NCBI GenBank assembly: GCA_964455755.1
Contig: CAYWAK010000004.1
Coordinates: forward strand, 1 to 36,671
Length of the DNA stretch: 36,671 bases
Direction of reading: 5' to 3'
Source of the DNA: an uncultured Ardenticatenales bacterium
GTDB taxonomy: Bacteria > Chloroflexota > Anaerolineae > Ardenticatenales > JAADHH01
The translations under genes were made by a program, and so were the position numbers. Of this stretch, positions 8,390 to 29,707 are shown one piece after another. The notes beneath the pieces are model-generated. The model was not told the DNA's origin, did no database searches, and worked only from the letters and a program-made list of their open reading frames with translations. Positions within the stretch are counted from its first letter, which is position 1; every line of letters begins with the position of its first letter.

Positions 8390-9386
8390 ATTACTCTGAC
8401 CTCCTGTTTCAAACACTGAAATCAATTACGTAATAGAAAGCCTGCCAATCGCATTAAAGAGCAATTGCTGTTCGCTTGAACGATCCCCCTACGCACCACC
8501 CCCTTTCCTATGACATCAAGGATAAGTCCAAGAAACCAAGTTGCCAGTTACATGTTACTCACGGTGCCCCGACAAGATTATGCCTTTGCAAGGGCCACAA
8601 GTTTATCGTTGGCAACGAAACGGCCGTACCAATTTGTTTCATCGGCCCTCCGGCCGATCCACACATGGAAAGAACAAACAAAATCCCCCCAACTACACCG
8701 TTTCATTTATAAAGGGCGTGGCCGGAGGGCAGGAAAAACCATATACCATAAACATTGGGAAAGGAACAGCGCAGAGGATAACTTCGACGATTTCCTATTC
8801 GGACACGTCCAGGAATCCTTTGAATCATTACCTTTTGCCATCCAATTTGAATTCTCGGTATGGAAAGGGTGCATCGTCATAAATGAAAATGCCTTCTTAC
8901 CTGCGAATACAAACTTCTTGCGGCTACAACGATCACATACTTACAACACGGTGGCAGTTCTTGTCTACGTTCCATGGCAGGACCGAAATAAGCTCTCGCC
9001 ATGTACAAGCTATGCTGTGCTACCAAATCTCGTTGTTAAAGGTAAAACCTGGGGTTCTGTATGAAGAAAAGCACTTACCCACGCAAACACAATGCGAAGC
9101 TGTAGGTAACTTTGCTATACTTAGTATACACCATTTTTTATCGGTTGTCAACCCCCCTAAAAACAAAGAATTCGCGGCCTGCCCCTGCCACCCAAAACGC
9201 GCCCAGGCGCGTTGCCGGGCGATCAACCTGCTTCCTTCCGGCAGGTTTGTGATAACAGCCGTCGAATTCATTCGATGGTTGTTCCACGCTGTGCTCTCTG
9301 CGCCTCTGCGGCGCGTAAACTACCGGCCAGAACACGCTCCAGACCCCTGTGGGTAAATCACCGGGCGTGGTAACGTGTGCCACGCG

Positions 9387-10853
9387 TTACGACGGCGGCG
9401 GGCAGCGATAGATGACCAGGTTCGAAGCATAGCCATAGGCTGCGCCGGCAAAGCGCTGCCCGACCGCGCAGTGCCCGGCCAAAACCATGCGCTCAAGCCG
9501 GGGGAACATGCCGTCATGCAGCACCAGATAGCGGGGATGGTAGCGATTCACGGCCCAAATCGCTGCGTCTTCGTAGCTCGTTTGCGCGGTGAGTTGCCGG
9601 GCAACATCCGGATAGATCAAACCGGCGAAATCTACCATCGGGCGCCGGGCATAATAGCCGATGATGCCGGTCTCCAGCACACCGACCCGCGCGTCCGCCT
9701 CTGTGTTTTCGGCCAGCCAGGTGCCCACGGCACGGTAGATGGGCACACGCCGGTCCACGTGCTGGCGCAGTTGCCAAACGCCCCAACCCTGCATCACCGC
9801 GAACCCCAGAATCGCCAGAGTCACCCCGGCCGCGGAAAAAGCCGGCCGCGAGACAACGCGCCGTAGCCCGGCATACGCCGCTTCAAAACCCAGGCCCACG
9901 GCTACCACAAAGCCCGGCACCAGCGGTGCGTAATACCAAAAGTATCGAGAGACGCCCAGCGCCGTGTAGGCGATGATGAACAGCGCCGGCCAGGCCAGAA
10001 TCAGGCCCCACCGGCGCCGCCGGACCAGCATAAAGAGGAGGCCAGCAGCAGCCAGCAGCGCTTCCAGCCGGTAGGTCCAGTACCGGCCATAGCCCGCCGC
10101 CAGGTCCGCGAGGCCCTGAGCAAAGGATTGGCTGGCTTTCAACGCCCCCTGATGCTGCTTAACGGCAAGCGTTGCCGGTATGGGCGAGCCGAAATACCAC
10201 CAGGCGAAGGCAAACCACGCCCCGCTGATGGCCACAAACAGGATCACCGGGAACCAGGGGATGTCTTGCTCGCGCCGCCGCAGCACATAATGGGCCGTCA
10301 GCAGCATCAGCAGCGGAACGGCATCGGCACGGGTAAGCAGAACCAGCGCGCCGGCAAGAGCGGCCAGCGCGTAGCGTCGCCGGACGTACCAGACGATCGT
10401 GGCCAGGCAGAGCATGTTGTAGAAGATCATTTCCCCACCAAATGTCGTGAAAAGGAGGGGAAACATGGGGTACAGCAGGAGCCCGGCCCAGCCGACCATG
10501 CGGGTCTTCCATTCCTGCGCCAACTGCCACAGCAAAAGCCCCCCGCCGGCCAAAGAGAGCGCACTCAGAAAATTGCTGAGCGCAGGCAACGCCGGCCACG
10601 CCTTGCCCAACAACGCCAGGAGCAGGGCATACAGCGGGGTCGTCGTGCTGAGCACATGCTGACCCGGGTTATAGACGAAGCCATGGCCGGCCAAAAGATT
10701 CTGGGCATAGCGGAAGGTGATGAAGGGATCGTCATAGGCCCAGTGGGCATAGGTCAGGGTTGCCGCACCGGTGACGAGGCCAACGTAAAGGATCGGCCAC
10801 CACCGGTGCCACCTCGCCTGCGCAATGTTCAATGCGAATGGCTCCCGCTTCAA
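9387..10853 (-). CDS. Polytopic GT-C-fold membrane glycosyltransferase (Aft/ArnT/PMT-like)
   Basis: 488 aa with more than 10 hydrophobic helices. The first extracytoplasmic loop carries AYDDPFITFRYAQNLLAGHGFVYNPG, the acidic DD motif typical of GT-C enzymes that use polyprenyl-phosphate sugars. TTG start with no clear SD, so the start is uncertain. Confidence 0.65.
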   Translation of the reverse strand: MKREPFALNIAQARWHRWWPILYVGLVTGAATLTYAHWAYDDPFITFRYAQNLLAGHGFVYNPGQHVLSTTTPLYALLLALLGKAWPALPALSNFLSALSLAGGGLLLWQLAQEWKTRMVGWAGLLLYPMFPLLFTTFGGEMIFYNMLCLATIVWYVRRRYALAALAGALVLLTRADAVPLLMLLTAHYVLRRREQDIPWFPVILFVAISGAWFAFAWWYFGSPIPATLAVKQHQGALKASQSFAQGLADLAAGYGRYWTYRLEALLAAAGLLFMLVRRRRWGLILAWPALFIIAYTALGVSRYFWYYAPLVPGFVVAVGLGFEAAYAGLRRVVSRPAFSAAGVTLAILGFAVMQGWGVWQLRQHVDRRVPIYRAVGTWLAENTEADARVGVLETGIIGYYARRPMVDFAGLIYPDVARQLTAQTSYEDAAIWAVNRYHPRYLVLHDGMFPRLERMVLAGHCAVGQRFAGAAYGYASNLVIYRCPPPS

Positions 10854-10993
10854 GTCAGTCGTCGGTCATCAGATGCCGGTCATCAGCCGCCAGCAAGTAG
10901 GTGTCAGATGCACGTATCGCGCCTTCTAAAGTTCATCATTCATCGTTCCGCATTCAACCGCGCCCCACGCTCGACGCTCCCCGATCGCCCCCC

Positions 10994-12535
10994 TCAGGGC
11001 GCGCGGATGATGTACACCGGGTCGAATCCGACGTAGAGGCGGTAGTCTGATCCGGAAACCGTGGGCGTGACCGGCGCGCCGTAGCGGTCAAAGGCGGCTA
11101 CGAATTCGGCCCCAGGGATCGTCACCGCATACGTCACATCCTGCTTGGCCCAGGCCACATCCACCTCTTGGGCCCCTTTGCTAAACATATAGGCCTCAAT
11201 TCCGGAACCGTAGTTTGCCGGACCGACGTAGATCGTTTTCTTCAATTGGGCATTCAGTTGCTGGTAGGCAACATAGACCGAACGTGGGTACGCGTTGCTA
11301 TCGAGGAGACCGGTATACCTCCATCCGGGGCCATTCAGCGTGTACCAGACGAAGCCCTTGACATCTTCACCCAGTCCCCGTACAAAAGTGCGCACGACAT
11401 AGTCGGCCTGCATCTCGTAAAACGCATTTCCCGGCGGGTCACAGCCGGGAGTCTGTTCCGGACACATCAAACCGGTTTCGTTAGCGAAGACCGGCTTGTC
11501 AACGCCATACGCGCTCATCACCTGACGGAGATAGCGAGCCTTCCCGACGATATTTCCTCCCCAAGAGTCCCAGTTTCCACCGGCCGCGTTATCGTGATCC
11601 ACCTTCTGATTTACGTAGGACAGATACGAGTGATAAGGAACGATATCGAAATCGGACGCAGCCCCCGCTACGAGGATTCCTTCGAAGAATCGTTCGGGCT
11701 TCCCTTTCGCCAGGTCGGTCGTATTCGGGGTATCGAGGAGCAGTCCGCCGATCCAAACTTTGGCCTCGGCGTCCCGTTCCTTGATGGCCGGGGCAATGAC
11801 TTTCAACATCTCGCCATAATGCCGGCCGCCGTAGTACGGGTCGCTGATGTCGCCCCAACAGCCGTACACGCGATACGGGCTGGTGGGACTGGTCACGAAG
11901 GTGGGGTCAACGTCCGGCTCATTGCCCAGCTCCCAATTGTGAACGTTGAACTCCGGGGTCTTGTAGCGGTCCACCAATGCCCGGACGAATTGGGCATAAG
12001 CGCCAAACTTGTCCGTCCTGATGGCTCCACATGTTGTCGGCCAGGGTGTGCCGATCGTCGCCCAGGTCGGGTAATCCTGCAGGATCACCACCGGGGTCAT
12101 GCCGGCCGCCTTCAGAGCACGCAGCTCGTCCTCAAAGGACGCCAGGAGATCCCAGTGGTACGTATCGCCTTGCACAGGTTCTATCGTTCGCCACGAGACG
12201 CGGCTATTCATCCGCACCCAGCCGGCCCCCAGGTCTATGGCCCGCGTCAGAATCGTGCCGCCGGCGAGGGGCAAATTGGATTCCACGCCAAATGGCGATG
12301 GCTGCGGAAAAGAACGAATCACGGCGGGTAGATAGACTGTGGTGGATGAAACACTCTGCCGGGGGGAAACGAGAGCTGCTCGTCCAGTCTCACGCACGTC
12401 ACGACTGCTCGCAGCAGAAGCATGGCTGAAGTGCAAGCCAAGCCACGTGAGAGCCGACAACATCGTCAGCACGCAAATGGCTGCGGCAAGGCGTGAGAAA
12501 CCGTTCCTGAATCCGGTTGCTGTTTCCATATTCAA
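10994..12535 (-). CDS. Secreted clan GH-A (GH5/GH39-like TIM-barrel) glycoside hydrolase
   Basis: 513 aa with an N-terminal signal/anchor (AAAICVLTMLSALTWLGL). WELGNEPD (acid/base Glu in an NEP motif) and FANETG (nucleophile Glu) are spaced as in clan A. Its start codon directly abuts the upstream stop (12536). Confidence 0.7.
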   Translation of the reverse strand: MNMETATGFRNGFSRLAAAICVLTMLSALTWLGLHFSHASAASSRDVRETGRAALVSPRQSVSSTTVYLPAVIRSFPQPSPFGVESNLPLAGGTILTRAIDLGAGWVRMNSRVSWRTIEPVQGDTYHWDLLASFEDELRALKAAGMTPVVILQDYPTWATIGTPWPTTCGAIRTDKFGAYAQFVRALVDRYKTPEFNVHNWELGNEPDVDPTFVTSPTSPYRVYGCWGDISDPYYGGRHYGEMLKVIAPAIKERDAEAKVWIGGLLLDTPNTTDLAKGKPERFFEGILVAGAASDFDIVPYHSYLSYVNQKVDHDNAAGGNWDSWGGNIVGKARYLRQVMSAYGVDKPVFANETGLMCPEQTPGCDPPGNAFYEMQADYVVRTFVRGLGEDVKGFVWYTLNGPGWRYTGLLDSNAYPRSVYVAYQQLNAQLKKTIYVGPANYGSGIEAYMFSKGAQEVDVAWAKQDVTYAVTIPGAEFVAAFDRYGAPVTPTVSGSDYRLYVGFDPVYIIRAP

Positions 12536-14527
12536 TCACATTCCTCCAAAGAATTTCCAAATTGTCGTCATCGAGACCACGTCCAGCAGCGCCAGCGCGC
12601 CGAGCAGGCCGCGCGCCACGCGTCCCTGATACCGTCCCGGCACCCAGGCGAGCCAACCGGCCATCAAGGCCAGGGCCGTGGGAATGATCACCGGGTAGCC
12701 ATACCGCGCACTGGGCGTAAAAACCTGGTCGAGACTGGGATGGAAGCGCAGAAGGGCGCTCCCCCATCCTATGAACATAACGATTGCCAAGAAGGCTATC
12801 GCCCGTTTCTTGTGCGCCAGATTCTCCTGCCCGGAACTTCCCATACTGCGCGGCGCATTTTGGAAGCCTTCGTCATTGAATATGGCCCCCGCATTTTCCG
12901 GCACGCCAGAGGAGCGGACTACGCGGGCAGCACGAATCAACAGCCCTATTAGACTAAACGCTGTAATCACCCGAAAGATACGGTACCACACTTCGGGAAG
13001 CCCGATATGATTCCACCCGAAGCGCGCCCAAAACGTTCGGAACAAGTTGTCCGCTGTAGGCAAATAAAGCGCACGCGTCCGTGACCAATCGAGGACGGAG
13101 GCCACGAACAGCGACAGCGGAGCCGGGGCATAAACCATCAAAGACTGCTCGACCCAGGGCCGCAACCGTGGCCACAGCCACTCTCCGGAGCCGTTGCGCA
13201 GGCGATTCGTGAAGGGCTGCCCACCCCACCGGCCCCGCTGACCGCTCGGATCATCAAAGCGGGGGGCCGAATCGAGCGGCCACACCCCTTCGTGCAACAC
13301 AAGGCCGTCGTAGTACACCGTCACCGGTTCGCGTGCTCCCGCCCCAAGCGAAGGGTCCAGCACAACTTCCACCTGGTGCGCCTCGTCCGAGACCGATTGG
13401 GTGTGGGCATAAAAGACCGGCGTGGTGGTAATGTCGAGCACGTGCGGTGCGTGCGGCGATCCGTCGCGCAGGGCGGGGGCACGCACGGGCACCGGTTCGG
13501 TGGCCCACATCCACGCCCCGATGGTGACCTCTTGGCCGCGCAGTGCCTCGACATCGCGAGTCAGCAACGGCTGCCTGACGCCAACCCGCGATTCGGCGGT
13601 GCCCAGTTGCATGGCCAGCACCCGGTGGCCGAGCGGGGCCTGGGCCGATTCTTGCGGCAGCGATGTTTCTCGCCCCGGATTACGATACCAGTATGCCCCA
13701 TCGTCCCATGAGAAGAGAGCCGTTATGCCCAGCAAAATCACGCCCAACAGGATGACCGTTCCCTGCCACGGCCACGGACCACGGAGCAGGCCCAGCGCGA
13801 TAACCGGCAGGGCCAACAGGACAGCCGAGCCAACAGTGTTCTTGGTCGCGGCGCAGATCGCGGCGCTGCCAACCACCCAGATGAGCCGGCGCGCGGACAG
13901 GCCACGCATGATCATCCGCACACTCCCCCACAGAAACAGGGAGAAGAAAGCGATCGCGCCGACGTCGTTGTTCACCGCCGTCATCAAGTCCGAAAAGGCG
14001 GGCAACAGCATCATGAAGGCGGGCACGGCCCAGCGCAAGGGATGGCGTGCGGGGGTCAGGTCGGCGACCAGGCGACCGGCCACCCAAATCGTTGACGCAT
14101 ACAGAATCACGGAGACCAAACGGCCTACGTAAAGTTGAAACGTTACGCCGGTGTAGTGAAAGAAACGCAGAGGCAAAGCGAGCAACAGGTAATAGAAAGG
14201 AGGGTGGCTGAGTTCCGACAACCCAATCCAGATCGGTTCCTTCAACGATATGAGATCAGGACGGAATCCGAGGTCACGGAAGAAATTGTGGGTCAGCATC
14301 GAAGCGGCCACTTCGCGACGCATGGACTGGTCGAATTCGCCTGCCTGTGGCAATTGCCCGCGGTTCGCAATCAGCCACGCATATTCAAAGTGGGTCGGTT
14401 CGTCGTAATGTTGCCAGGGAGGTTCAAGAGACAGGTAAATAAGGCCATGCAGAAAGGCCGCGATAACGAGACCAGGCAGGATAAGCTTTTCCAGGCCACT
14501 TGTACGAAAGAAAGTGCCGCTACTCAT
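12536..14527 (-). CDS. Polytopic membrane protein, DUF2142-like / GT-C-like (tentative)
   Basis: 663 aa. An N-terminal TM helix is followed by PPWQHYDEPTHFEYAWLIA (a DExxH loop as I recall for DUF2142). There are several TM helices, a ~180 aa soluble insert, then C-terminal TM helices. Confidence 0.6.
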   Translation of the reverse strand: MSSGTFFRTSGLEKLILPGLVIAAFLHGLIYLSLEPPWQHYDEPTHFEYAWLIANRGQLPQAGEFDQSMRREVAASMLTHNFFRDLGFRPDLISLKEPIWIGLSELSHPPFYYLLLALPLRFFHYTGVTFQLYVGRLVSVILYASTIWVAGRLVADLTPARHPLRWAVPAFMMLLPAFSDLMTAVNNDVGAIAFFSLFLWGSVRMIMRGLSARRLIWVVGSAAICAATKNTVGSAVLLALPVIALGLLRGPWPWQGTVILLGVILLGITALFSWDDGAYWYRNPGRETSLPQESAQAPLGHRVLAMQLGTAESRVGVRQPLLTRDVEALRGQEVTIGAWMWATEPVPVRAPALRDGSPHAPHVLDITTTPVFYAHTQSVSDEAHQVEVVLDPSLGAGAREPVTVYYDGLVLHEGVWPLDSAPRFDDPSGQRGRWGGQPFTNRLRNGSGEWLWPRLRPWVEQSLMVYAPAPLSLFVASVLDWSRTRALYLPTADNLFRTFWARFGWNHIGLPEVWYRIFRVITAFSLIGLLIRAARVVRSSGVPENAGAIFNDEGFQNAPRSMGSSGQENLAHKKRAIAFLAIVMFIGWGSALLRFHPSLDQVFTPSARYGYPVIIPTALALMAGWLAWVPGRYQGRVARGLLGALALLDVVSMTTIWKFFGGM

Positions 14528-14536
14528 GATGGGCCG

Positions 14537-14565
14537 ATTATAACGTCAATTGGCTGACAGTGCAA
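14537..14565 (-). promoter_or_regulatory. Sigma-70-like box TTGCAC-N17-TATAAT, 9 nt upstream of the ATG at 14527 (near-leaderless)
   Basis: Minus strand: TTGCAC (14560-14565), 17 nt spacer, TATAAT (14537-14542). It shares the 11-mer ACGTTATAATC with the box at 20915. Confidence 0.3.
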
Positions 14566-16972
14566 ATATCCACACCAGGTCATGGTGGTAAACGGGCTGA
14601 AAGTATGGGCTGGCGAGCAAATCGGCAGCCACCAGGGGGTGTTTCTCGCCGAAGCCGATTTGCCCCTGGCGCTGTCCGAGGTACACATGGGTGACGCCCG
14701 CGGCGCGGAGCCACCGGGCCGTCTCGGCATCCCCGAAGTCGGCTTGCTGCACGCGGTGATAGAACGCCAGCAGCTCTTGCCGCATTTCCGGGCGCGCTGT
14801 TTTCTCGGTGCCATAGATCAAGGGCGGCACGGTATTGGCCCGGCCGGCCAGCAGCGGAATCCACCAGCCGGCGTCCGCGCCGACCACAACACTATCGCCA
14901 TACGCGGTGAAGCCGTTGACCAGAAATCGGGCGTCGGCCGGCGTGTTCTGGCGAATCCAGGCCATCGCTTCTGTATCGGGCCGGCTGACCATCTGATAGC
15001 GCGCGTCCCGCACACCGGCCATTGTTTTCGCCCCGAAAAGGGCTGCAACCAGGAAAAGGGCCACCATCATGCGTCCGGCCAGGGGTTGCCATCGTTGCAA
15101 AGCGCTCGTCAGGTCACCGAGCATGTACCCGACCAACAGGCCGGCCGGCATGTACAGGGCAATGAACACGGCAAAGTTGTTCACCACGCCGGTTCCCGGC
15201 AGGCCGAGCAGGCTCGGGTTGGCCAGCAACAGCAAGAAGACGGTCCACACGATGACGACCGTCGCCCCTCGCCGGCGATGCAGCAAGGCCCACAACGCGG
15301 CAAGCAGCATGAGGCCGATGAGCGCGGCCGGCAGGTAGGGGTGAATGTCGCCGACCGCGTTGTAGCCGGTACGGACGTAGGTGGACGTGTGCCCTTCGGC
15401 CAGCCGGCCATACATGTTCGCCAGCCGGCTGGAGAGCAAGTTCATCGCCCAGGGCAAATCAACCAACAGGGCGACGATTCCGACCAGACTCAAACGAGCC
15501 AGTGCCCGCCGCCCGCGCGCCGGCAATTCCCCTTCATGCGCAAGGTGGAAGGGGAGCCAGGCCAGGAAAAAGCAGAGATAGAACAGGAAGACCCGGTAGT
15601 GCGTCAGGCTCAACCCGGCCACGGCCAAGCCGGCGAGCACGATTTCCCGACGCCGGCGGCCTTCGATGGCGTGCAGAGTGAGCAGGATGGCCATGGGCAA
15701 CACCGCCTGACCGGCCAACTGCGTGTAGCGGCCCCAGTTGATGTAGAACTGAGGCATGGGTGAGAACAGCCCGGCCACCAGCACGGCCCCCACCCCGGCC
15801 CAGCGATTGTTTGTCAAGCGCACAGCCAGCGGGTAAAGTCCCAAAACGGCCAGGACGTTGAGCACCTGTCCGATTACGATCACCGCCGTTGCCGCCGGCT
15901 GGCCGCTCACCCAGTGCTGGGCGGCAACCAGACTGTGAAAGCCAAAGTGGTAGGTGAGGGAGCGCAGGGGCGCATAAGGCTCCCACGATTGGAAAAGCCC
16001 GCCCCGGTCAATCAGGAGCTGCGCCAGCATGGTGTGCTGGTACGAATCGCCCCACATCGGCACCTCCAACCCCCGCGCGGCGAGCCAGCGCGTCGCTGCT
16101 ACCAGCAGGATGAGTAACGAGAGCACCGGCAGCGGCAGCGAGGCCTGTCTGCGCGGCCGGAGAGCCGGCGCGCCCCGCCGAAAGCGCACCACAATGGCCG
16201 CGGCGGCCAGCACGAGTCCGGCGACTATCACCAGGCGGCCCATGCGCAAGTGCAGCACGTGCGCCCACAGCATGACCAGCGGCGCGAGGGCTGCGCTCAG
16301 TGCCGGCGCTACGGTCAGCCGCTCGCTCCAGCCCGCCGCGTCTGCTGGCTGGAGCCAAAGGAGCAGAGCCAGGCCGGGCAAAAGGAGCAAGGCCGCCAAC
16401 GCCAGCCCCCAGGGGATTGCCTGAGCCATCTCGCCGGCCAGGGCAAGGAGCAGGCGCAGCGGGTCGTAATGCAACCGGAAAACCAGTTGCCCTTCCTGAG
16501 GCTGCCCGGCCAGGTAGAGCGCGCCGTCTTCGTAGGATTCGGCCGGCCCCTGCCAGGCAGTGAATGCGTCGCCCGGCTGTGCAGTGGGAGATTCCAGGAC
16601 GAAGAAGTATCTCCTACTGTCCGACCCCGATTGGACAGGAAAGGAAAAGGTGTGATAAGCATTGTCAACGACATCCGAAGCGGCAACGGTGACTGTGGCC
16701 AGGTCCTCGGTGCTCTCCGGGTTCGCTCGCAGATGGAAGATGAGGGGCCGGCTGTTCGGCCGCGCGTAGGTAGCGAGCAGGACTTCCACGCCGTTGAGCC
16801 CGCCCCACCGCGCGACGAAGGTCTGTCCTACGGTGTGCGGGCCGTAGATTTCTCCCGCCGGGATGTTGGCAGTCTGGCCTTGCACAGTTTCGGTCCAGGG
16901 TGTGCAGCCGGAAAGAGCGGCCACCAAGGCCAGCAGGAGGAGGAGATTTGTGTACTTCGAAGGCCACAACAT
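14546..16972 (-). CDS. Large polytopic membrane protein (GT-C-like, tentative) with lipobox signal and extracytoplasmic N-terminal ~130 aa module
   Basis: 808 aa. MLWPSKYTNLLLLLALVAALSGC carries an LSGC lipobox. Residues ~43-170 (GQTFVARW...FHLRANPE...YHTFSFP...RRYFFVLESP...GDAFTAW) are homologous to the C-terminus of CDS 20988..22889. About 14 TM helices follow, then a C-terminal soluble domain. Confidence 0.65.
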   Translation of the reverse strand: MLWPSKYTNLLLLLALVAALSGCTPWTETVQGQTANIPAGEIYGPHTVGQTFVARWGGLNGVEVLLATYARPNSRPLIFHLRANPESTEDLATVTVAASDVVDNAYHTFSFPVQSGSDSRRYFFVLESPTAQPGDAFTAWQGPAESYEDGALYLAGQPQEGQLVFRLHYDPLRLLLALAGEMAQAIPWGLALAALLLLPGLALLLWLQPADAAGWSERLTVAPALSAALAPLVMLWAHVLHLRMGRLVIVAGLVLAAAAIVVRFRRGAPALRPRRQASLPLPVLSLLILLVAATRWLAARGLEVPMWGDSYQHTMLAQLLIDRGGLFQSWEPYAPLRSLTYHFGFHSLVAAQHWVSGQPAATAVIVIGQVLNVLAVLGLYPLAVRLTNNRWAGVGAVLVAGLFSPMPQFYINWGRYTQLAGQAVLPMAILLTLHAIEGRRRREIVLAGLAVAGLSLTHYRVFLFYLCFFLAWLPFHLAHEGELPARGRRALARLSLVGIVALLVDLPWAMNLLSSRLANMYGRLAEGHTSTYVRTGYNAVGDIHPYLPAALIGLMLLAALWALLHRRRGATVVIVWTVFLLLLANPSLLGLPGTGVVNNFAVFIALYMPAGLLVGYMLGDLTSALQRWQPLAGRMMVALFLVAALFGAKTMAGVRDARYQMVSRPDTEAMAWIRQNTPADARFLVNGFTAYGDSVVVGADAGWWIPLLAGRANTVPPLIYGTEKTARPEMRQELLAFYHRVQQADFGDAETARWLRAAGVTHVYLGQRQGQIGFGEKHPLVAADLLASPYFQPVYHHDLVWIFALSAN

Positions 16973-17038
16973 GGGAGCCTCATTATCACAGCGTCTAGAA
17001 TGTTCTATGACGAATGCTTCAGCGATACGAATTGATGG

Positions 17039-17067
17039 ATTGTAACACTGATCTCGCTGAATGACAA
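17039..17067 (-). promoter_or_regulatory. Sigma-70-like promoter TTGTCA-N17-TACAAT upstream of the 808-aa gene
   Basis: Minus strand: TTGTCA (17062-17067), 17 nt spacer, TACAAT (17039-17044). It lies in the 230 nt spacer, ~65 nt upstream of the ATG at 16972. A second TGTGATAAT box (extended -10-like) lies 9 nt before the ATG. Confidence 0.35.
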
Positions 17068-17202
17068 CTGTTGACTTGTGGCAGATGAAAAGGACTCATA
17101 CAGCCGTCCCGTCCACTGCCAGGTAGCCGTACATCCAGCGGCGCATCTTTCCCCCCACCCTGTCATTCTTGGGCGCCAGCACGTACTTCTCATCTACCCC
17201 TG

Positions 17203-18567: not shown

Positions 18568-18569
18568 AA

Positions 18570-20906: not shown

Positions 20907-20914
20907 GGTCACTG

Positions 20915-20943
20915 ATTATAACGTTACTCGTGACTTCAGGCAA
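20915..20943 (-). promoter_or_regulatory. Sigma-70-like box TTGCCT-N17-TATAAT, 8 nt upstream of the ATG at 20906 (near-leaderless)
   Basis: Minus strand: TTGCCT (20938-20943), 17 nt spacer, TATAAT (20915-20920). No SD precedes the start codon. Confidence 0.3.
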
Positions 20944-20987
20944 ATCCGGGGGTTGCGGCGGGTATAGTAGGGGGGAATGCCTCGCCT

Positions 20988-22889: not shown

Positions 22890-24934
22890 TGCTCGCTGAC
22901 AGCACGTTTGGACAACATGATCGGCAGGTATTTCTTGTATGGATAGGACACGGCCGGCGGTCGCAAGAGAATAATACCGTCATACGGCGGCAGGGTGACG
23001 CTGTTCACTTCGCTCCCATCATTCACCGTGCGATCTTGCACGCCATTGATCTTGCGGAACGTGCCGCCCAAATCCACGACACGGGCGTGCGGCGAAGCGT
23101 TCACCAGGGCAACGCCATGCGCAAAGTCACGTCGCCAAAGCCGCGCAGCGCCAGACTGGAAGCGCACATCATCCACCCAGACATCTCCCGTAGCCGAGGC
23201 AAGCCCGAATCCGATGCCGGCCCCGCCATGCCCAAAGGTCTGGTTGGCGCGAAAGGAGATGGTGTAATGCCGCCAGGAGGTTCCCAGGTCACGCATCGTC
23301 CAAAGGCCAAGCAACGAGTAGGGATTGTTCATCATTTGGACCCAGATGGCAATCTGCCGGTGGCTGGAGGCGCGCGCCCAGAAAGAGACGGTGTAGGTCT
23401 GATCTTTGGAAACGGACACATCGCCATGCAGAAGGCGCACCCGCCACCAGTTGCCGTAGTCGTCTGCGCCGGGTGCCTGGCGTATGGCCACGTGCATGGA
23501 CGAATTGCCGCCGCTGCACGAGGTCATATCCGGGCTGAAGGAGGCATCGTAGCCGGATCCATGGTCCACGTAGGTATCCCAATCCGTTTGGCCGTCTTCG
23601 AAGGAGCCGTTTGCAAGCAGGGTGCCGGGCAATTCGTCGAGCCAACGCGCATCGGCCAGGGGCTGGCCCAGGTAGCCACGGCCCTGACCGGCATTGTCGT
23701 ACTCATCAAACCACCAGGTATCGCCGTGCCGTTGATCGCCGCTGTCGTAGTAGAAGAAGCCATCCCCCATCAGCGTGCTGGCCAGCCCGAAGCGCATGTC
23801 CCGATAGCTCACCTGGTCCGTGTTGTACGTATTGCTGTTGATGAGCGCCGTGAAAGGGGGCTGGCCCAATTGCGCCCAGGTGGCGTAGCGGTTCATCTCG
23901 AATTGCCAGCGATCGAGTTCCGCGATGTAGGGACTGCTTGCCGTCTGGCCGTAGGGGTCTTTTTGCGCGCTGAAACTTTCGAGCATCAGCCCGTTCATTT
24001 GATCATATGGTGTGCATGAAGTGTTGCCAACAAGCAAGAAGTCGGGACCGGCATAGGCGCGTATCTGGGTGATGAGCTGGCGCACACCGTCCTGCCAGCC
24101 GACCGTGGCATCGGCGACACCGTCGTTGTTAGCATCGGTGTTGCCCCCTTCGATCCACTCAAGGTGGTCGGCGCACTGATCGAGCAAGACGCCGTCCCAC
24201 AGCCCGGAGGCGATGATGGTGTCGCGCACATATTGCGCCAGGAAATCGGTCCAGCGGCGGCCCTGACCGTCGCGCGGCGTGTAAATGCTGTTGTTGAGCA
24301 TCCACGTGCGCCCCAACTCATAATCGTAAAAGCTGGAGGCATGCGCAGCAATGTGTGTGCCTTTCGAATGGGAGGCGGCGACAGAATAGTATCCCCTTTG
24401 CACGCGAATCCGGTTGCCCGAAACCGACGTGACGTGCATGTGTTCCAAGCCTACGCGAACGTCGTCGCCGGCCTTCAGCTTACTGCCATTGGCCACATAA
24501 AACTGCGTGTCGGTGGCACCGATGTCCTGGTCCAGCTTTGTGTAGGGTCGCAGCAACCACCATCCGTCGTAAGGCGTCTGCAGGAAGCGCGTGTCTGCCT
24601 CTTGAGGCAACACCTCTTCCGTCGGAATGAAGGCCAGGATTTTGGCGTTTGGGTTCAGGGCGCGAAGCTGCGCCAGCGATTGTGGGCGCATGCGCACGAT
24701 GCGGTCGTCCAGCACAATGACGTCGTTACGGGCGATGGCCGGCAATTCGGCCTCATCCAGAGCATGCGCCTGATAAATGTGCAGACGCGGGTAGTCATAA
24801 TTCAACGTTGCCTGCGTATGTACGGCGGGCGTCTGTGCCGTCGCCCTGTGGGCAAAGAACAGCACAGAGGACATCAGGGCCAGCACAAGGGCTGCGCCCC
24901 CCAACGTGTTTCGTATCGCTTTGGCCAATTTCAT
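22877..24934 (-). CDS. Secreted glycoside-hydrolase-like protein (GHL15-like TIM barrel, tentative) + CBM4/9-like carbohydrate-binding module
   Basis: 685 aa with a signal peptide (GGAALVLALMSSVLFFAHRATAQ). The central region carries WDGVLLDQCADHLEW...NNDGVAD. The C-terminal part carries LANGSFEDGQTDW...TYTVSFWARA...VWVDDVRF, typical of CBM4_9 jelly-rolls. AAGGA lies upstream of the ATG. Confidence 0.65.
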   Translation of the reverse strand: MKLAKAIRNTLGGAALVLALMSSVLFFAHRATAQTPAVHTQATLNYDYPRLHIYQAHALDEAELPAIARNDVIVLDDRIVRMRPQSLAQLRALNPNAKILAFIPTEEVLPQEADTRFLQTPYDGWWLLRPYTKLDQDIGATDTQFYVANGSKLKAGDDVRVGLEHMHVTSVSGNRIRVQRGYYSVAASHSKGTHIAAHASSFYDYELGRTWMLNNSIYTPRDGQGRRWTDFLAQYVRDTIIASGLWDGVLLDQCADHLEWIEGGNTDANNDGVADATVGWQDGVRQLITQIRAYAGPDFLLVGNTSCTPYDQMNGLMLESFSAQKDPYGQTASSPYIAELDRWQFEMNRYATWAQLGQPPFTALINSNTYNTDQVSYRDMRFGLASTLMGDGFFYYDSGDQRHGDTWWFDEYDNAGQGRGYLGQPLADARWLDELPGTLLANGSFEDGQTDWDTYVDHGSGYDASFSPDMTSCSGGNSSMHVAIRQAPGADDYGNWWRVRLLHGDVSVSKDQTYTVSFWARASSHRQIAIWVQMMNNPYSLLGLWTMRDLGTSWRHYTISFRANQTFGHGGAGIGFGLASATGDVWVDDVRFQSGAARLWRRDFAHGVALVNASPHARVVDLGGTFRKINGVQDRTVNDGSEVNSVTLPPYDGIILLRPPAVSYPYKKYLPIMLSKRAVSEQCTP

Positions 24935-24998
24935 GAAATCCTTTTTGCGTCCGTTTGCCTCGCGGAGACTTCAGGCCACGGCAAGATTCGACCAGCCT

Positions 24999-26282
24999 CT
25001 ACTGAAGGGCGGCCAACTGGGCCAGCACCTGTTCCATTTCATGGTGGATGCTGCGTTGAAAGGCGGCAAACGCCTCCTCCTGTTGGGCACTCATTTGCCG
25101 CAAGCCTTCCACCTGCGATTGTTGCTTCTCGATGACATCCTGCTGCCGCGTGATGTGCCGCAAGAGCCGGGCGATGATTTGCTCGGCCAACAGGGCGGCG
25201 GGCGGCGCAGGCGGTGCATCTGCCAACAGTGTTTGCAGCATGTCCCCAAACTCGCTGCTGCAACTTTCGGGCGTATAGCGGCGGTACACATCCTGTAACG
25301 CGGCCTGGCCAAGGGCATGGCGTCGCTCTGGATCACCAATCAATTCGTGCAGCGCCCGCTCCCAATCATCTGGGGTCTGCGCCAACAATCCGTTCTCCCC
25401 GTCCGTGATGGCCCATCTGTAGGCATCCGTCGGACTGGCGACGGTAGGAACGGCCACCGCGCCCGCTTCAAAATACTTGAGTTCGCTCTTTGCCCGGCAA
25501 AAGGGACTCTCTGTCTGCAGCGGCACAATGTTGATATCCGTTTGGGCAATGACGTGCGGCAGTTCACGCCAGGGCAGATAGGGCGTGCGTACGACACGAT
25601 CCAACAGCGGATCGAATTTGTAGCTCAGATTTAGTTCGCCGGCCACGTGCAGCCACACGTGCGGGTGAGCGCGCATCACCTTGACCAACACATCGGTAAT
25701 CGCGCGAAAGTCCCGATCGTGGGAGCCGCTCCCGCTGAAATAGCCGATAATCACGCGGTCATCGTCGGGCGAACGGTGGCGGTTCCGCTGCGCCTCCTCC
25801 GAGATACGCAGCAATTCGTCGCTCAGCACATTGCGATTGACGAAGGCCTGTTTGCCAAATCGGCGCGCAGCTTCTGCCAGGTATTCCGTCGGGACGAGCA
25901 CATGGCGACAACGTTGGAAGGTGGCTTCGTAGCCACGCAACACTTGCCGGTAGCGGCGGGCCTCTGCCGCCGTCATCGTATCCAACAGCGGCACCTGGCC
26001 GGCCGCCTCCGGATCGAAAATGAGATCATCGGTCTCGAACAATACCGGTTTATGCGCGAACTCCGTCAACGCCAGGAAATCGGCGATCAGGGGGGAGAAG
26101 GGCACTCGATGAAGGATAATAACATCATGAAGAGCCACATCCCCCAGGATTGTGGAGTCATCGTCCAGTTTCAGGGTGTTTTGAATTCCCAGCAAGCGCA
26201 ACTGCGCTTGCTGGTGGTCACAGCGATAGCGGCGGGTATCCCCCGGCGTACCGCTCACAAAAAGCACGGCTCGTTCGGTCAT
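24999..26282 (-). CDS. GT-B glycosyltransferase (module A) with ~70 aa C-terminal coiled-coil tail
   Basis: 427 aa with RYRCDHQ, FETDDLIFDP, IGYFSGSGSHDRDF and CRAKSELKYFEAGAVAVPTVAS. The tail is LLAEQIIARLLRHITRQQDVIEKQQSQVEGLRQMSAQQEEAFAAFQRSIHHEMEQVLAQLAALQ. There is a 4-nt ATGA overlap with the wzm stop. Confidence 0.75.
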   Translation of the reverse strand: MTERAVLFVSGTPGDTRRYRCDHQQAQLRLLGIQNTLKLDDDSTILGDVALHDVIILHRVPFSPLIADFLALTEFAHKPVLFETDDLIFDPEAAGQVPLLDTMTAAEARRYRQVLRGYEATFQRCRHVLVPTEYLAEAARRFGKQAFVNRNVLSDELLRISEEAQRNRHRSPDDDRVIIGYFSGSGSHDRDFRAITDVLVKVMRAHPHVWLHVAGELNLSYKFDPLLDRVVRTPYLPWRELPHVIAQTDINIVPLQTESPFCRAKSELKYFEAGAVAVPTVASPTDAYRWAITDGENGLLAQTPDDWERALHELIGDPERRHALGQAALQDVYRRYTPESCSSEFGDMLQTLLADAPPAPPAALLAEQIIARLLRHITRQQDVIEKQQSQVEGLRQMSAQQEEAFAAFQRSIHHEMEQVLAQLAALQ

Positions 26283-27109
26283 ACTTCCTCACTGAAGCGC
26301 GGGCTAAATCGGCGGAAAACGGCATATCCTACGACAAGAAACGCAACCGCCGTGAAAAAGGTACGCAGGAAGAAGTCCCCCGCCGGCGGAATGCCTTTGT
26401 AAAGCACCTCGCGATAGGCCGCCACCAACGAGGCCATCGGGTTGAGATAGAATGTCCAGCTCCACACATTGATGGTCATCCCCAACACAACCTGTTTGTG
26501 CGGCAAGATTTCGATGGGGTAGAACACGGGCGTGAGGAAGAACCACGCCAGCATGACAACCTCCATGATTACGCGCATATCGCGGTAGAAGACGTTGATA
26601 GTACCCAAGATAAAGGTCAGCCCAATCGTGAAGAAAAGCTGCGTCACGACGATAACGGGGAGTAGCAGTACCCAGACGGTGACCCGAATGCCGGAAAGGT
26701 ACAGCAAAGGAAAAAGGACCAGCAGAGAGAGCAGGAAGTTTACCAGGTTGGATAGGACCAGGGAAATCGGCAGGACTTCGTGCGGAAAATAGACCTTGCG
26801 CACCAGGTCGGCATGGCTAACCACGCTGTCCAGCCCACCGACAACAGACATAGAGAACCAGTTCCAGGGCAACAGGCCGATGAGGACAAAAGCCGGAAAA
26901 TGCTCAACGTTGCCGCTGGGAATCATTACCGTGAAGACGGCCGTGAAAACGATCATCATCAGCAATGGGTTGATGAGACTCCACAAGAAGCCGAGAACGG
27001 AGTTCTTGTACCGCACCTTCAGGTCTCGCAACACCAGGTTGGCAAGAAGGTCGCGGTAGGTATAAAGCTCACGAAGGTCGTTTGGCAAATTCGTTATCTG
27101 TGCGATCAT
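26279..27109 (-). CDS. wzm: ABC-2 type polysaccharide exporter permease
   Basis: 276 aa. RDLLANLVLRDLKVRYKNSVLGFLWSLINPLLMM is the hallmark N-terminus of Wzm/TagG/KpsM permeases. Six TM helices. Confidence 0.9.
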   Translation of the reverse strand: MIAQITNLPNDLRELYTYRDLLANLVLRDLKVRYKNSVLGFLWSLINPLLMMIVFTAVFTVMIPSGNVEHFPAFVLIGLLPWNWFSMSVVGGLDSVVSHADLVRKVYFPHEVLPISLVLSNLVNFLLSLLVLFPLLYLSGIRVTVWVLLLPVIVVTQLFFTIGLTFILGTINVFYRDMRVIMEVVMLAWFFLTPVFYPIEILPHKQVVLGMTINVWSWTFYLNPMASLVAAYREVLYKGIPPAGDFFLRTFFTAVAFLVVGYAVFRRFSPRFSEEV

Positions 27110-27113
27110 GGCC

Positions 27114-28127
27114 TCAATAAAGCTGCTTCACGCGCTGCCTGAGCTTTGCAAACCACCCCTTTTCGTAGGTAGCAATCTGGTCTTCCAATTCCCGAATGCG
27201 GGCATCCTTTTCCCGAATCGCTTTGAGGAGCTCGGCAGATCGTGCATCCTTTTCTGCGTAGAGCGCATAAATCCATTCGGACAAGGGTTTCCCGTCTGGT
27301 GTAGAATCTTTTCCAAACCGATACATGTCATTACAATCCTTACAAATCGTAAACCTGACCCCATGCTGCGAAATTCGCTCCCGCTTTTCCACTACATCGG
27401 TCAGGCGATCCGCAGTCAAATTGCCAAGCACCGCCTCTCCTCCCAAATCGTGACAGCAGGAAAGCACGTCCCCGTTCCAGGCGACGAAAAGCGTGCCGGC
27501 GAAGATATCGCAGCGACCAAAATTGACCGGCGACAGGGGAGTTTCGCAAACCAGGGGATTGTTGAAGTGCCCGCCCCGATTGTGACACTGTGAAAAGAGG
27601 ATTTCGTGGATACCAAGGTCTTCCAGGTACGTACGGAGCGCGGCCAAATGGGACTCCGTTTGGCGCGTAACGCTTACGTTCGCCGAAACCTTGGCCCTTC
27701 CCTCCGCCATCTGAACAAAACCCCGGATGTTGCCGGCGGCTCTCTCCAGAGAAAGCCCTCCCATCATCTGTGAATACAACTCTTCGTGATGTCCGTTAAA
27801 GCTGATGATAATGGTTTCCAGGCCGGCGTCCAGCAGCTTCTCTGCGCGCCTCGGCGACAAGGTGGAAGCATTCGTCGTCAGCACGGTCGAGACCCGTCCG
27901 GACAAATAGGCGATGAACCGCGGCAGGTCAGGATTCAAGGTAGGTTCGCCGATGCCAGAGAAACTCACAGCCTGCACCGTGTCGCACGCAAGCACACCGT
28001 CCGCGATTGGCCGGAAGACGTCCCAGGACATCTTGCCCAGGGGGCGCGTCAGCGATTCGCGGGGACAGTGCAGGCAATGTGTGTTGCAAAGGTTCGTAGC
28101 CTCGAATTCGACTATTTCCATTGCCAT
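27114..28127 (-). CDS. Radical SAM enzyme with truncated SPASM/twitch-like auxiliary motif and C-terminal coiled coil
   Basis: 337 aa. CNTHCLHC (CxxxCxxC) is at residues 14-21, followed by GIGEPTL. C-x12-G-x4-C (CDIFAGTLFVAWNGDVLSC) and CKDC follow. The tail is EKDARSAELLKAIREKDARIRELEDQIATYEKGW. The start overlaps the wzt stop by 16 nt (10 nt if the second ATG is used). The stop lies 4 nt before the wzm ATG. Confidence 0.85.
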   Translation of the reverse strand: MAMEIVEFEATNLCNTHCLHCPRESLTRPLGKMSWDVFRPIADGVLACDTVQAVSFSGIGEPTLNPDLPRFIAYLSGRVSTVLTTNASTLSPRRAEKLLDAGLETIIISFNGHHEELYSQMMGGLSLERAAGNIRGFVQMAEGRAKVSANVSVTRQTESHLAALRTYLEDLGIHEILFSQCHNRGGHFNNPLVCETPLSPVNFGRCDIFAGTLFVAWNGDVLSCCHDLGGEAVLGNLTADRLTDVVEKRERISQHGVRFTICKDCNDMYRFGKDSTPDGKPLSEWIYALYAEKDARSAELLKAIREKDARIRELEDQIATYEKGWFAKLRQRVKQLY

Positions 28128-29323
28128 TCGCCCGCCAACGAAACCATGCCGTATTTTTCGTCGACCGCGCGCACCCGAAAATGGTACAAGCGGTCATGAT
28201 AATCATAGATTATCGTATCCTCCCAATCTCGAATTGCGGCTGAAAGCTCGTAGCGGCCTTCCAGCAAAGAGAGCCGGCCAATCCGGTAACGTATGACCCC
28301 CTCATTCTCGAGGGCCGGCAATTCATGGCCGGCGAACTGGGTATTGGGCCCGGAAACGTGGGCACCATCGCTGCGGTGGACGGCCAGACCAAAAACGGGG
28401 CGTTCAATTCGGCGTGCGGCACGGAAGTGAATCTCGACGACCAGGGGATCCCCGGTACGGAATACCTGCTTGTCCTGGCCGTGATCATCCAACAGGCGTA
28501 CGTCTGTGATTTTGGCCTCGCCGCTGCCCCAGCGCCGAAGCTCGCCTTCCTCCTCGTTCGGCGTTAGCGTCCCCTCTTCTTTCTGCCAGGTGCGGTCGAG
28601 GTAGCGGGCAACGACCGCTGTTGATGATCCGTCGGCAACCACCGTGCCTCCGTCCAACCAAATTACCCGCGAACACACCGATTGCACCATGTCCGCGCTG
28701 TGGGAGACGAAAAAGATCGTCACGCCCCGGTCATGCAATTGATCAATGCGGTCAAAGCACTTGCGCTGAAACGAATTGTCCCCCACCGCCAGCACTTCGT
28801 CCACAATCAGGATGTCCGGGTTCACCATCGTGGCGATGGAAAAGCCAAGGCGCACTTGCATACCCGACGAGTAGTGCTTCACGGGCATGTCTATGAAGCT
28901 GCCGATGTCCGCAAAGTCTACGATTTCGTCGAAGCGCCGGCGGATTTCCGGACGCGGAACGCCCAGCACCGAGGCGTTGAGAAAGATGTTTTCACGGCCG
29001 GTCAAGTCGGCGTGAAAGCCGGCGCCAAGTTCGAGCAGGGCCGACAAGCGTCCGTGAACTTCCACATGGCCCACCGTCGGTTTCAGGATGCGCGTGGCCA
29101 GTTTGAGCAGCGTACTCTTGCCTGCCCCGTTCGGACCAATGATACCTATCGATTCCCCCTGCTCCACCTGGAAGCTGATGTTGCGCAAGGCCCAAAACTC
29201 TTCCCGGCTACCACTCTCTCGTTGAAAAAGGTTGATTACGGTCTCCTGGAAAGAGCGGGGACGATCATGATGCAGTATGAATTTTTTGGAGACACCATCA
29301 AATCGAATAGCTACGCTCAACAC
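28112..29323 (-). CDS. wzt: ABC polysaccharide exporter ATPase with ~150 aa C-terminal extension (Wzt_C-like glycan-binding domain, inferred)
   Basis: 403 aa. Walker A GPNGAGKSTL, signature YSSGMQVRL and Walker B ILIVDEVLAVGD are present. Residues ~255-403 extend beyond the NBD (KITDVRLLD...VVEIHFRA...GRYELSAAI), as in cap-recognising Wzt proteins. GTG start. Confidence 0.9.
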   Translation of the reverse strand: MLSVAIRFDGVSKKFILHHDRPRSFQETVINLFQRESGSREEFWALRNISFQVEQGESIGIIGPNGAGKSTLLKLATRILKPTVGHVEVHGRLSALLELGAGFHADLTGRENIFLNASVLGVPRPEIRRRFDEIVDFADIGSFIDMPVKHYSSGMQVRLGFSIATMVNPDILIVDEVLAVGDNSFQRKCFDRIDQLHDRGVTIFFVSHSADMVQSVCSRVIWLDGGTVVADGSSTAVVARYLDRTWQKEEGTLTPNEEEGELRRWGSGEAKITDVRLLDDHGQDKQVFRTGDPLVVEIHFRAARRIERPVFGLAVHRSDGAHVSGPNTQFAGHELPALENEGVIRYRIGRLSLLEGRYELSAAIRDWEDTIIYDYHDRLYHFRVRAVDEKYGMVSLAGEWQWK

Positions 29324-29361
29324 TCCTGCCCTTTTCCGGTATTTGACGATCAGCTCGCCGT

Positions 29362-29390
29362 ATTATATCGCAACTGACCAGCCTGGGCAA
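29362..29390 (-). promoter_or_regulatory. Sigma-70-like promoter TTGCCC-N17-TATAAT upstream of wzt
   Basis: Minus strand: TTGCCC (29385-29390), 17 nt spacer, TATAAT (29362-29367). It lies ~40 nt upstream of the wzt GTG. Confidence 0.4.
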
Positions 29391-29423
29391 ATACTTGTTT
29401 CTTGCAGGATTCGCAATGTGCCT

Positions 29424-29456
29424 AGAAGTTCAACTTCTCGGGGAGGTTGAACTTCT
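29424..29456. promoter_or_regulatory. Three copies of half-site AGAAGTT/AACTTCT (15-bp perfect palindrome plus a third copy); candidate operator/activator site
   Basis: AGAAGTTCAACTTCT at 29424-29438 is a perfect 7-1-7 palindrome. GTTGAACTTCT at 29446-29456 repeats the half-site and can also pair with 29424-29434. It is centred ~40-65 nt upstream of the -35 box of the wzt promoter. Confidence 0.3.
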
Positions 29457-29704: not shown

Positions 29705-29707
29705 GAG

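Follow-up and report, generated by a model that had tools for sequence, protein, structure and literature searches.

A candidate cell-envelope polysaccharide locus built from three separately conserved modules in an uncultured Ardenticatenales bacterium

Introduction

Mycobacterial arabinogalactan follows a model in which export by an ATP-binding cassette (ABC) transporter precedes the action of extracytoplasmic glycosyltransferases (GTs) of the GT-C type. In the slg locus of Geobacillus stearothermophilus NRS 2004/3a, which directs synthesis of an S-layer glycan, the idea is similar to that developed below, as a capped poly-rhamnan is exported by Wzm/Wzt. ABC export followed by GT-C action outside the membrane is also the model for the cell wall polysaccharides rich in rhamnose (Rha-CWPS) of lactococci, streptococci and enterococci; there, DUF2142 proteins (WpsI/WpsJ-like) are proposed to act as polymerase or transferase, and both the initiator (TagO/RgpG) and the LCP ligase are encoded outside the locus (PMC9574508, PMC9746298, PMC12599335). 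Here we describe a block of twelve genes at 9387-29323 of a DNA stretch from an uncultured Ardenticatenales bacterium. The window, meaning the whole stretch analyzed, is a complete contig of 36,671 nt, and "absent" below refers to this contig and not to the genome. We consider it reasonably probable that the block is a cell-envelope polysaccharide locus of an Anaerolineae/Ardenticatenales (Chloroflexota) bacterium, built from three separately conserved modules.

A sequence-only reading of the same DNA had seen here two assembly logics that are usually separate. That view does not stand, as the combination of ABC export with outside GT-C enzymes is the published Rha-CWPS model (PMC9574508, PMC9746298, PMC12599335), and the overall logic of the locus is the one set out in a review of these polymers (PMC9574508). 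The logic of the pathway as a whole is already established in Firmicutes and mycobacteria. The new parts are a radical S-adenosylmethionine (SAM) protein linked to Wzt, GT-C and hydrolase families without a Pfam entry, and a two-sided beta-sandwich domain.

Gene content and modules

Twelve open reading frames (ORFs), all in the same direction on the minus strand, occupy 9387-29323. Starting from wzt they are:

28112-29323, minus strand: wzt, 403 residues, ABC ATPase with a C-terminal Wzt_C domain (Pfam); module A
27114-28127, minus strand: radical SAM/SPASM enzyme, 337 residues (Pfam Radical_SAM and SPASM); module A
26279-27109, minus strand: wzm, 276 residues, ABC-2 permease (Pfam ABC2_membrane); module A
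24999-26282, minus strand: GT-B glycosyltransferase, 427 residues (Pfam Glycos_transf_1 and Glyco_trans_1_2); module A
22877-24934, minus strand: GHL15 and CBM_4_9 secreted hydrolase-like protein, 685 residues (Pfam; signal-peptide-like N-terminus); module A
20988-22889, minus strand: WsaF-like GT-B, 633 residues (Pfam WsaF_C and WsaF_N); module A
18570-20912, minus strand: two-module GT-B, 780 residues, candidate polymerase (Pfam; PDB 2x0d); module B
17203-18567, minus strand: GT-B, 454 residues (Pfam Glyco_trans_1_4, 39.8 bits); module B
14546-16972, minus strand: DUF6541 membrane protein with predicted GT-C fold, 808 residues (Pfam; AlphaFold2 and Foldseek); module C
12536-14527, minus strand: DUF2142-like polytopic protein, 663 residues, GT-C candidate (sub-threshold Pfam match); module C
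10994-12535, minus strand: clan GH-A-like secreted or anchored hydrolase, 513 residues (residue pattern, no Pfam family); module C
9387-10853, minus strand: ArnT/ALG/AftB-like GT with predicted GT-C fold, 488 residues (AlphaFold2 and Foldseek, no Pfam family); module C

The ORF listing agrees with the tight packing described in the sequence-only reading, and all the junctions given there were verified on the sequence. The end of wzm and the start of the 427-residue GT gene overlap in an ATGA (26279-26282), the start of the radical SAM gene lies over the wzt stop (16 nt, 28112-28127), and the GHL15 gene overlaps the gene of the WsaF-like 633-residue GT by 13 nt (22877-22889). The stop of the 513-residue gene and the start of the 663-residue gene abut at 12535/12536, and 2 nt separate the 454- and 780-residue GT genes (18567/18570). 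The remaining intergenic gaps are 4, 18, 64 (24935-24998), 75 (20913-20987), 140 (10854-10993) and 230 nt (16973-17202). The functional sketch, in which GT-B enzymes synthesize in the cytoplasm, Wzm/Wzt exports, and GT-C enzymes and secreted hydrolases act outside, also holds by Pfam and by AlphaFold2 with Foldseek.

Neighborhood comparison did not find the twelve genes conserved as a unit; three modules are found separately. Module A consists of wzt, the radical SAM gene, wzm, the 427-residue GT, the GHL15/CBM gene and the 633-residue WsaF-like GT, module B of the 780- and 454-residue GTs, and module C of the DUF6541 GT-C, the DUF2142-like protein, the GH-A-like hydrolase and the 488-residue AftB/ArnT-like GT-C. 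Module A recurs in loci L088 and L089 at 62-80% identity. Upstream of its relative in L088 (2355-7688) lie Asn_synthase, PqqD, NTP_transf_5 and HPr-kinase-like Pfam matches with no counterpart in the window, a combination that we take to be possibly a lasso-peptide-type set. Module B recurs in L002, an uncultured Ardenticatenales metagenome-assembled genome that is the closest genome match and whose orthologue of the 780-residue GT is 74% identical. When this GT was used as a query against species-representative genomes, none of the 80 loci had GT-C, glycoside hydrolase (GH) or radical SAM genes beside the GT homologue.

Relatives of module C have varied partners. L087 carries the DUF6541, DUF2142-like (82% identical) and GH-A-like genes at 82-88% identity and lacks the 488-residue gene. 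L082 combines a Bac_transf initiator, WecG, a DUF2142-like protein, three paralogues of the 513-residue hydrolase, a member of the 488-residue family with an adjoining 324-residue GT2, and DUF6541; LPG_synthase_TM proteins also lie beside the module there. In L084, a hydrolase-like gene and 488-residue-family genes precede DUF6541, and a Wzx-type flippase and a pyruvyl transferase are encoded a few kb further downstream; in L083, a hydrolase-like gene and the 488-residue family are followed by rmlC, B, A and D. The hydrolase homologue is upstream of the 488-residue family in L082, L083 and L084.

The sequence-only reading had found no initiator, ligase or sugar-nucleotide gene in the window, and family scans of 27 ORFs (12 in the block, 15 around it) bear this out: they returned no initiator, Wzy_C/O-antigen ligase, LCP or nucleoside diphosphate (NDP)-sugar enzyme family. 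For the initiating phosphoglycosyltransferase, neither Glycos_transf_4 nor Bac_transf was matched in these 27 ORFs, and no GT-A lipid-sugar synthase or flippase was detected among them (no Glycos_transf_2, GtrA or Polysacc_synt match). Because module C of the relatives adjoins an initiator, WecG, GT2 or rmlCBAD, the "missing" functions are probably encoded elsewhere in the genome. The WsaF-like GTs and the rml genes adjoining in relatives suggest that rhamnose or another 6-deoxyhexose is abundant in the glycan.

Comparison with described systems

The locus resembles the Rha-CWPS loci (cwps/rgp/gac/epa, dual-chain assembly) in export followed by outside modification by polytopic GT-C enzymes, and Streptococcus, Lactococcus and Enterococcus have relatives of its GT4-like module (~32% identical) close to wzm/wzt. 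It differs in having no rmlABCD, no RgpA/B/F matches, no GT-A/GtrB-type lipid-sugar synthase and no flippase, and in adding a radical SAM/SPASM gene that separates wzt from wzm, a pair of secreted hydrolase-like proteins and a Wzt_C domain. Its GT-C families, DUF6541 and a family without Pfam entry, are not described in Rha-CWPS loci.

The resemblance to arabinogalactan proposed in the sequence-only reading stands for the logic and the GT-C fold, and falls for orthology: identity to AftB is at most 20%, and the NCBIfam AftB model gives 19.9 bits against a cut-off of 1050. As in the arabinogalactan pathway (GlfT1/2, Wzm/Wzt Rv3781/Rv3783, AftA-D, EmbA/B), synthesis inside would be followed by ABC export and by several outside GT-C enzymes, and Foldseek puts both modelled window proteins near AftA, AftB and Emb. 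However, identity is only 13-20%, the phylum is another one, and the cytoplasmic GTs are GT-B/WsaF-like rather than GT-A GlfT. Scans of the window gave no genes of the decaprenylphosphoryl-arabinose (DPA) pathway and no UbiA or DprE-type matches.

With the slg locus, the window has in common the WsaF-like GT-B modules, putative rhamnosyltransferases by their likeness to the rhamnosyltransferase WsaF. It lacks the WsaB (Wzy_C) oligosaccharyltransferase, the WsaP initiator, the WsaE methyltransferase and the rml genes, and has GT-C enzymes instead. The O antigens O9a/O8 of E. coli and O12 of Klebsiella are alike in the C-terminal carbohydrate-binding domain of Wzt and in multi-module GT polymerases, and their terminators with coiled-coil rulers (WbdD/WbbB) recall the variable coiled-coil-like segments and basic tails of the accessory enzymes here. 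The candidate terminator of the window would be a radical SAM/SPASM protein and not a kinase/methyltransferase or a 3-deoxy-D-manno-octulosonic acid (Kdo) transferase, and there is no outer-membrane or lipopolysaccharide (LPS) context. The block is not orthologous to any of the systems compared.

Exporter and cytoplasmic glycosyltransferases

The Wzm/Wzt exporter recognized in the sequence-only reading is confirmed by Pfam: Wzt matches ABC_tran (76 bits) and Wzt_C (110 bits, cut-off 30.4), and Wzm matches ABC2_membrane (57 bits). Permease and ATPase are encoded together as an ABC-dependent export pair, and the C-terminal domain of Wzt is a predicted carbohydrate-binding domain that would read the cap at the chain end.

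Where six GT-B modules had been counted, Pfam finds five: one each in the 427-, 633- and 454-residue proteins and two in the 780-residue protein. The sixth was apparently the radical SAM gene at 27114-28127. GT-B families are the only GT type matched among the cytoplasmic GTs. The 780-residue protein combines a GT4-like N-terminal half with a WsaF-like C-terminal half, whose best solved relative is WsaF itself (PDB 2x0d, E 2.4e-9); the WsaF_C scores of the window GTs are 69.5 and 58 bits, the latter for the 633-residue GT, which also matches WsaF_N (31.8 bits). Both halves have paralogues in module A: the 427-residue GT matches the N-terminal half (43% identity, E 2e-86, residues 9-357), and the GT domain of the 633-residue protein is 52% identical to the C-terminal half. 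The 427-residue GT ends in a coiled-coil-like C-terminus. In the 633-residue protein, the GT-B part is followed by a coiled-coil-like linker, a beta-sandwich (residues ~444-578) and a basic tail. Relatives of the 454-residue GT (35-45% identity) flank the radical SAM gene or wzt in 8 metagenome loci.

A radical SAM/SPASM enzyme paired with wzt

The gene at 27114-28127, which the sequence-only reading did not recognize, encodes by its profile matches a radical SAM/SPASM protein and not a GT: Radical_SAM (49.6 bits) and SPASM (33.6 bits) both score over the Pfam cut-offs. The window protein contains the CX3CX2C motif (CNTHCLHC), two of whose three cysteines are nearly invariant, and seven cysteines downstream of the motif are invariant across 30 homologues. 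Further along come a coiled-coil-like segment, of variable length in the family, and a basic tail at the C-terminus. No NCBIfam model scores above its cut-off. The best PDB match, limited to the N-terminal core (E 3e-11), is BtrN, a sugar-type dehydrogenase of the radical SAM class with an aminocyclitol as its substrate.

Of 19 evaluable metagenome loci with relatives of at least 43% identity, 17 have wzt directly next to the radical SAM gene, and 8 also have a 454-like GT alongside. The trio of wzt, the radical SAM gene and wzm is found in L088, L092 and L093. One exception is L107, where the radical SAM gene is solitary. The other is L110, where rmlC and rmlB flank a homologue (50% identity) that comes immediately after a GT-C gene of the 488-residue family; in the same locus (3605-12126), a DNA methylase and HNH nuclease pair is inserted between rmlA and rmlD. 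Relatives below 40% identity showed no linkage to wzt in the metagenome scan. In the literature searched, no radical SAM enzyme tied to Wzt/Wzm was found; all three terms occur in two Xanthomonas papers, in one of which the co-mention concerns an unrelated plasmid gene.

The radical SAM protein is the most unusual component of the locus, and its pairing with wzt is not described. Among the window ORFs scanned there is no methyltransferase, kinase or GT99 that could serve as chain terminator, and the Wzt-linked radical SAM/SPASM protein and the 454-residue GT family are candidate terminator or capping enzymes. Our hypothesis is that Wzt_C reads a cap at the chain end and that the radical SAM protein makes either this cap or an unusual 6-deoxy-sugar donor needed for it. 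A broader and distinctly tentative proposal is that a Chloroflexota-centered radical SAM/SPASM subfamily is the dedicated partner of Wzt proteins bearing Wzt_C. A new, radical-based cap or unusual 6-deoxy-sugar donor would then couple termination to export, with a docking tail common to this enzyme and the GTs, and a phylum-wide and so far undescribed GT-C and hydrolase module would go on to build the wall polysaccharide of these monoderm-like bacteria.

Extracytoplasmic enzymes

Three GT-C-like enzymes had been proposed. AlphaFold2 and Foldseek support a GT-C fold for two of them, the 488-residue (9387-10853) and 808-residue (14546-16972) proteins, whereas the 663-residue protein (12536-14527) has only a sub-threshold DUF2142 match (26.5 bits against a cut-off of 30.1). 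PDB sequence searches with the three polytopic proteins gave nothing meaningful.

The model of the 488-residue protein, computed from a 44-sequence alignment, has a predicted local distance difference test (pLDDT) score of 93.5. Its Foldseek matches are ALG12, ALG9, ArnT, STT3/PglB, AftB and AftA, with E-values from 1.5e-8 (ALG12) to ~1e-4 and TM-scores around 0.6 (ArnT 0.64-0.66; AftB at 18-20% identity). D34 and D35 ("YDDPF") are invariant in the family, which has more than 1100 homologues, mostly from Anaerolineae/Chloroflexota, and part of its database entries are named "arabinofuranosyltransferase". Some members (P0069 and P0095) carry a fused domain matching the GH43, GH32N and GH130 Pfam models. 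This fusion mirrors the separate hydrolase gene upstream of the family in the loci examined, and such GH43-like fusions reinforce the partnership of GT-C and hydrolase.

The 808-residue protein matches DUF6541 (58 bits), a family of which no mention was found in the literature. Its model (pLDDT 87) is matched by STT3 (E 4e-10, the best), AftA (E 5e-8), DPY19, PglB, EmbB and AftD, with E-values up to ~1e-4. Cys23 of a lipobox is nearly invariant, an outside beta-sandwich spans residues 27-169, and P305, W307, D309 and H313 are invariant (W307-G-D309...H313 loop). As for the 663-residue protein, 10 of 30 relatives match DUF2142 and 3 of 30 match PMT_2; E43, P44, F47 and E48 are invariant just after the first transmembrane helix. 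From the predicted topology, the conserved acidic residues (D34/D35, D309 and E43/E48) would lie in the first extracytoplasmic, catalytic loop; only the loop of the 663-residue protein is seen to follow the first helix directly, and the outside position is inferred for all three. Each of the three families numbers ~900 to 1800 homologues, which typically share 40-55% identity with the window protein; those of the GT-C proteins carry the labels Anaerolineae or Chloroflexota. The taxonomic assignment is based on such Anaerolineae names and on the 74% identical Ardenticatenales genome L002.

The secreted hydrolases of the functional sketch also hold. The 685-residue protein has an N-terminal signal-peptide-like sequence, matches GHL15 (49 bits) and CBM_4_9 (39.5 bits), and has a 74% identical orthologue at the same position in L088. 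The 513-residue protein shows the pattern of clan GH-A, namely NEP(D) with E206, N352-E353, H302 and Y304, invariant across 6 homologues, and weakly matches a GH30 structure (7n6h, E 0.0016). A permissive Pfam scan (E up to 10) gave no family for this protein, for the 488-residue GT-C or for the beta-sandwich domain.

Domains and tails common to several proteins

The C-terminal beta-sandwich of the 633-residue GT is homologous to residues 28-166 of the 808-residue GT-C (39% identity, E 2e-27), and a bitopic 230-residue protein upstream of wzt in L088 is also homologous to it. The domain may plausibly bind one and the same glycan inside and outside the membrane.

A basic C-terminal tail, "GPxAL..E.R.Y..WR", ends the GTs encoded at 17203-18567, 18570-20912 and 20988-22889 and is conserved in their orthologues. 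The radical SAM family terminates in "AAYERGRFIR..RW", after its coiled-coil-like segment, and this terminus also ends 454-like GTs in other loci. Compared across L002, L088, L095, L098 and L099, these tails, often preceded by a coiled-coil-like stretch that varies in length, may represent a shared motif for membrane binding or docking. A home-made heptad/charge score, a crude index and not a validated coiled-coil predictor, peaks at 0.48 in the radical SAM protein, 0.44 in the 633-residue GT and 0.40 in the 427-residue GT, against at most 0.32 elsewhere.

Genes and sequences around the block

Upstream of the block lie a sortase gene, a response regulator with GAF and HD-GYP domains, FlaG, FliD, FliS and flagellin, the flagellar filament genes falling within 32183-36328. 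A 384-nt gap divides wzt from the sortase gene and contains a promoter-like site, TTGCCC-17-TATAAT (29390-29362). The sortase and flagellar genes reported in the sequence-only reading are thus present by profile scan, but this neighborhood is not kept in the related loci L088, L092 and L093, and for that reason it is probably incidental. The response regulator (30450-32102) overlaps the sortase ORF (29708-30499, first possible start codon taken) by ~50 nt. It is a likely cyclic di-GMP (c-di-GMP) phosphodiesterase, and its position between the flagellar genes and the glycan block could hint at a switch between motility and envelope, in a neighborhood that related loci do not conserve.

Between the block and the CoA-transferase genes, ~960 nt (8426-9386) are without a credible ORF and have a GC content of 0.49 against ~0.60. 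This region contains a strong promoter-like site on the minus strand (TTGACA-17-TATACT, 9151-9123) and two terminator-like hairpins (9221-9200 and 9191-9174); an Rfam scan of the window, this region included, gave no match. Further downstream, a GNAT acetyltransferase fused to an acyl-CoA synthetase (1841-4006) and two tandem family III CoA-transferase paralogues (5506-8425) are apparently unrelated to the glycan block. A near-identical contig (L001) is found in the Joint Genome Institute (JGI) metagenome 3300002231; among exact-sequence look-ups of wzt, wzm and the 808-residue protein, only that of wzm retrieved it. There, flagellin is called as 375 and 66 residues (802-2074) instead of the single 430-residue ORF at 35036-36328 of the window, and the gene of the 780-residue GT is also broken; both breaks are probably assembly or sequencing frameshifts in L001.

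Proposed mechanism and alternatives

The following model can be proposed. An initiator encoded elsewhere in the genome would make a polyprenyl-diphosphate primer, which by homology the five GT-B modules of the 427-, 633-, 780- and 454-residue proteins would extend in the cytoplasm into a chain probably rich in rhamnose or another 6-deoxyhexose. The chain end would be capped, the radical SAM/SPASM protein, possibly with the 454-residue GT family, making the cap or its unusual sugar donor, and the Wzt_C domain would read this cap, a role known from homologous domains. Wzm/Wzt, again by homology, would export the lipid-linked glycan. Outside, the two proteins with predicted GT-C fold and the DUF2142-like candidate would extend, decorate or transfer the glycan, using polyprenyl-linked donors as their homologues do and acting on a presumed acceptor. 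The two secreted hydrolase-like proteins may trim or remodel the product.

Several points weigh against reading the block as one envelope polysaccharide locus. Module A in L088 lacks GT-C genes and stops at genes for a toxin and a transposase, module B in L002 is not followed by a DUF6541 gene after the 454-residue GT, L092 has the wzt-radical SAM-wzm trio without an adjoining GT, and the DUF6541 gene is solitary in L085. On the minus strand, promoter-like sites at 29390, 20943, 17067 and 14566 coincide with the starts of modules A, B and C or come close to them. They are no more than matches to the consensus, of which the region 17000-29800 has 10 where 4.1 are expected and the region 8300-17400 has 4 where 2.5 are expected. 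As the initiator, GT2, flippase, LCP/ligase and NDP-sugar genes are off the contig, the pathway is not closable from it, and the identity of the sugars, the acceptor and the radical SAM chemistry are inferred. The GT-C status of the 663-residue protein is also weak: alignment of its family with the 488- and 808-residue families in hhalign gave probabilities below 2%, in a test that cannot cope with the divergence among GT-C families, and searching the PDB with a profile of the family returned nothing.

Some of these points favor two or more independent glycan systems, in which modules A and B would make an ABC-exported polymer and module C would be a separate, widely conserved Chloroflexota wall-glycan machine for another polymer. 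This is possible, though we hold it doubtful. It would fit the absence of GT-C genes from module A in L088, the occurrence of module C genes without an ABC transporter in L082, L084, L085 and L087, and the promoter-like sites at or near the internal module starts (20943, 17067 and 14566); the size of the 488-, 808- and 663-residue families suggests a housekeeping role. Yet the genes run in one direction with little space between them, homologous beta-sandwiches occur in a module A GT and a module C GT-C, and in L110 the radical SAM family adjoins the 488-residue GT-C family, all of which speaks against separate systems.

Protein glycosylation of the slg type, with a lipid-linked glycan moved en bloc to an S-layer or other surface protein by a GT-C oligosaccharyltransferase, seems unlikely. 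WsaF-like GTs and Wzm/Wzt also occur together in the Geobacillus stearothermophilus slg locus, and some members of the DUF6541 and 663-residue families match PMT_2. The STT3/PglB oligosaccharyltransferases are the best fold matches of the DUF6541 protein, but Aft/Emb and DPY19 follow with E-values two to six orders weaker, and the fold alone does not discriminate. The window scans contain no Wzy_C-type O-oligosaccharyltransferase, WsaP or methyltransferase, and the contig has no S-layer gene.

A secreted exopolysaccharide or biofilm matrix, with the hydrolases acting in its release or processing and possibly under c-di-GMP control, is similarly improbable. Dedicated secreted hydrolases are typical of matrix exopolysaccharide operons, and the GAF and HD-GYP response regulator is ~1.1 kb upstream. 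However, that gene is not adjacent in related loci, and capped export of the Wzt_C type with GT-C decoration is better known from wall or LPS-type glycans. Finally, a flagellin glycosylation island beside fliC, fliS, fliD and flaG is rejected as very improbable in spite of the nearby filament genes, as the response regulator, the sortase gene and the 384-nt gap with its promoter-like site intervene, module A relatives are not beside flagellar genes, and the type of pathway does not fit, flagellin glycosylation being cytoplasmic and needing neither Wzm/Wzt nor a GT-C enzyme.

Implications for the Chloroflexota envelope

How Chloroflexota build their envelope is poorly understood. The locus exposes abundant and barely curated families: the 488-residue GT-C, the GH-A-like hydrolase that accompanies it in the loci examined, the two-sided beta-sandwich and DUF6541. 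With a pathway logic known from Firmicutes and mycobacteria, the locus adds to existing biology and does not overturn it. Within that frame, the conserved pairing of wzt with a radical SAM gene provides a testable idea for a new way in which ABC-exported glycans may be terminated or marked.

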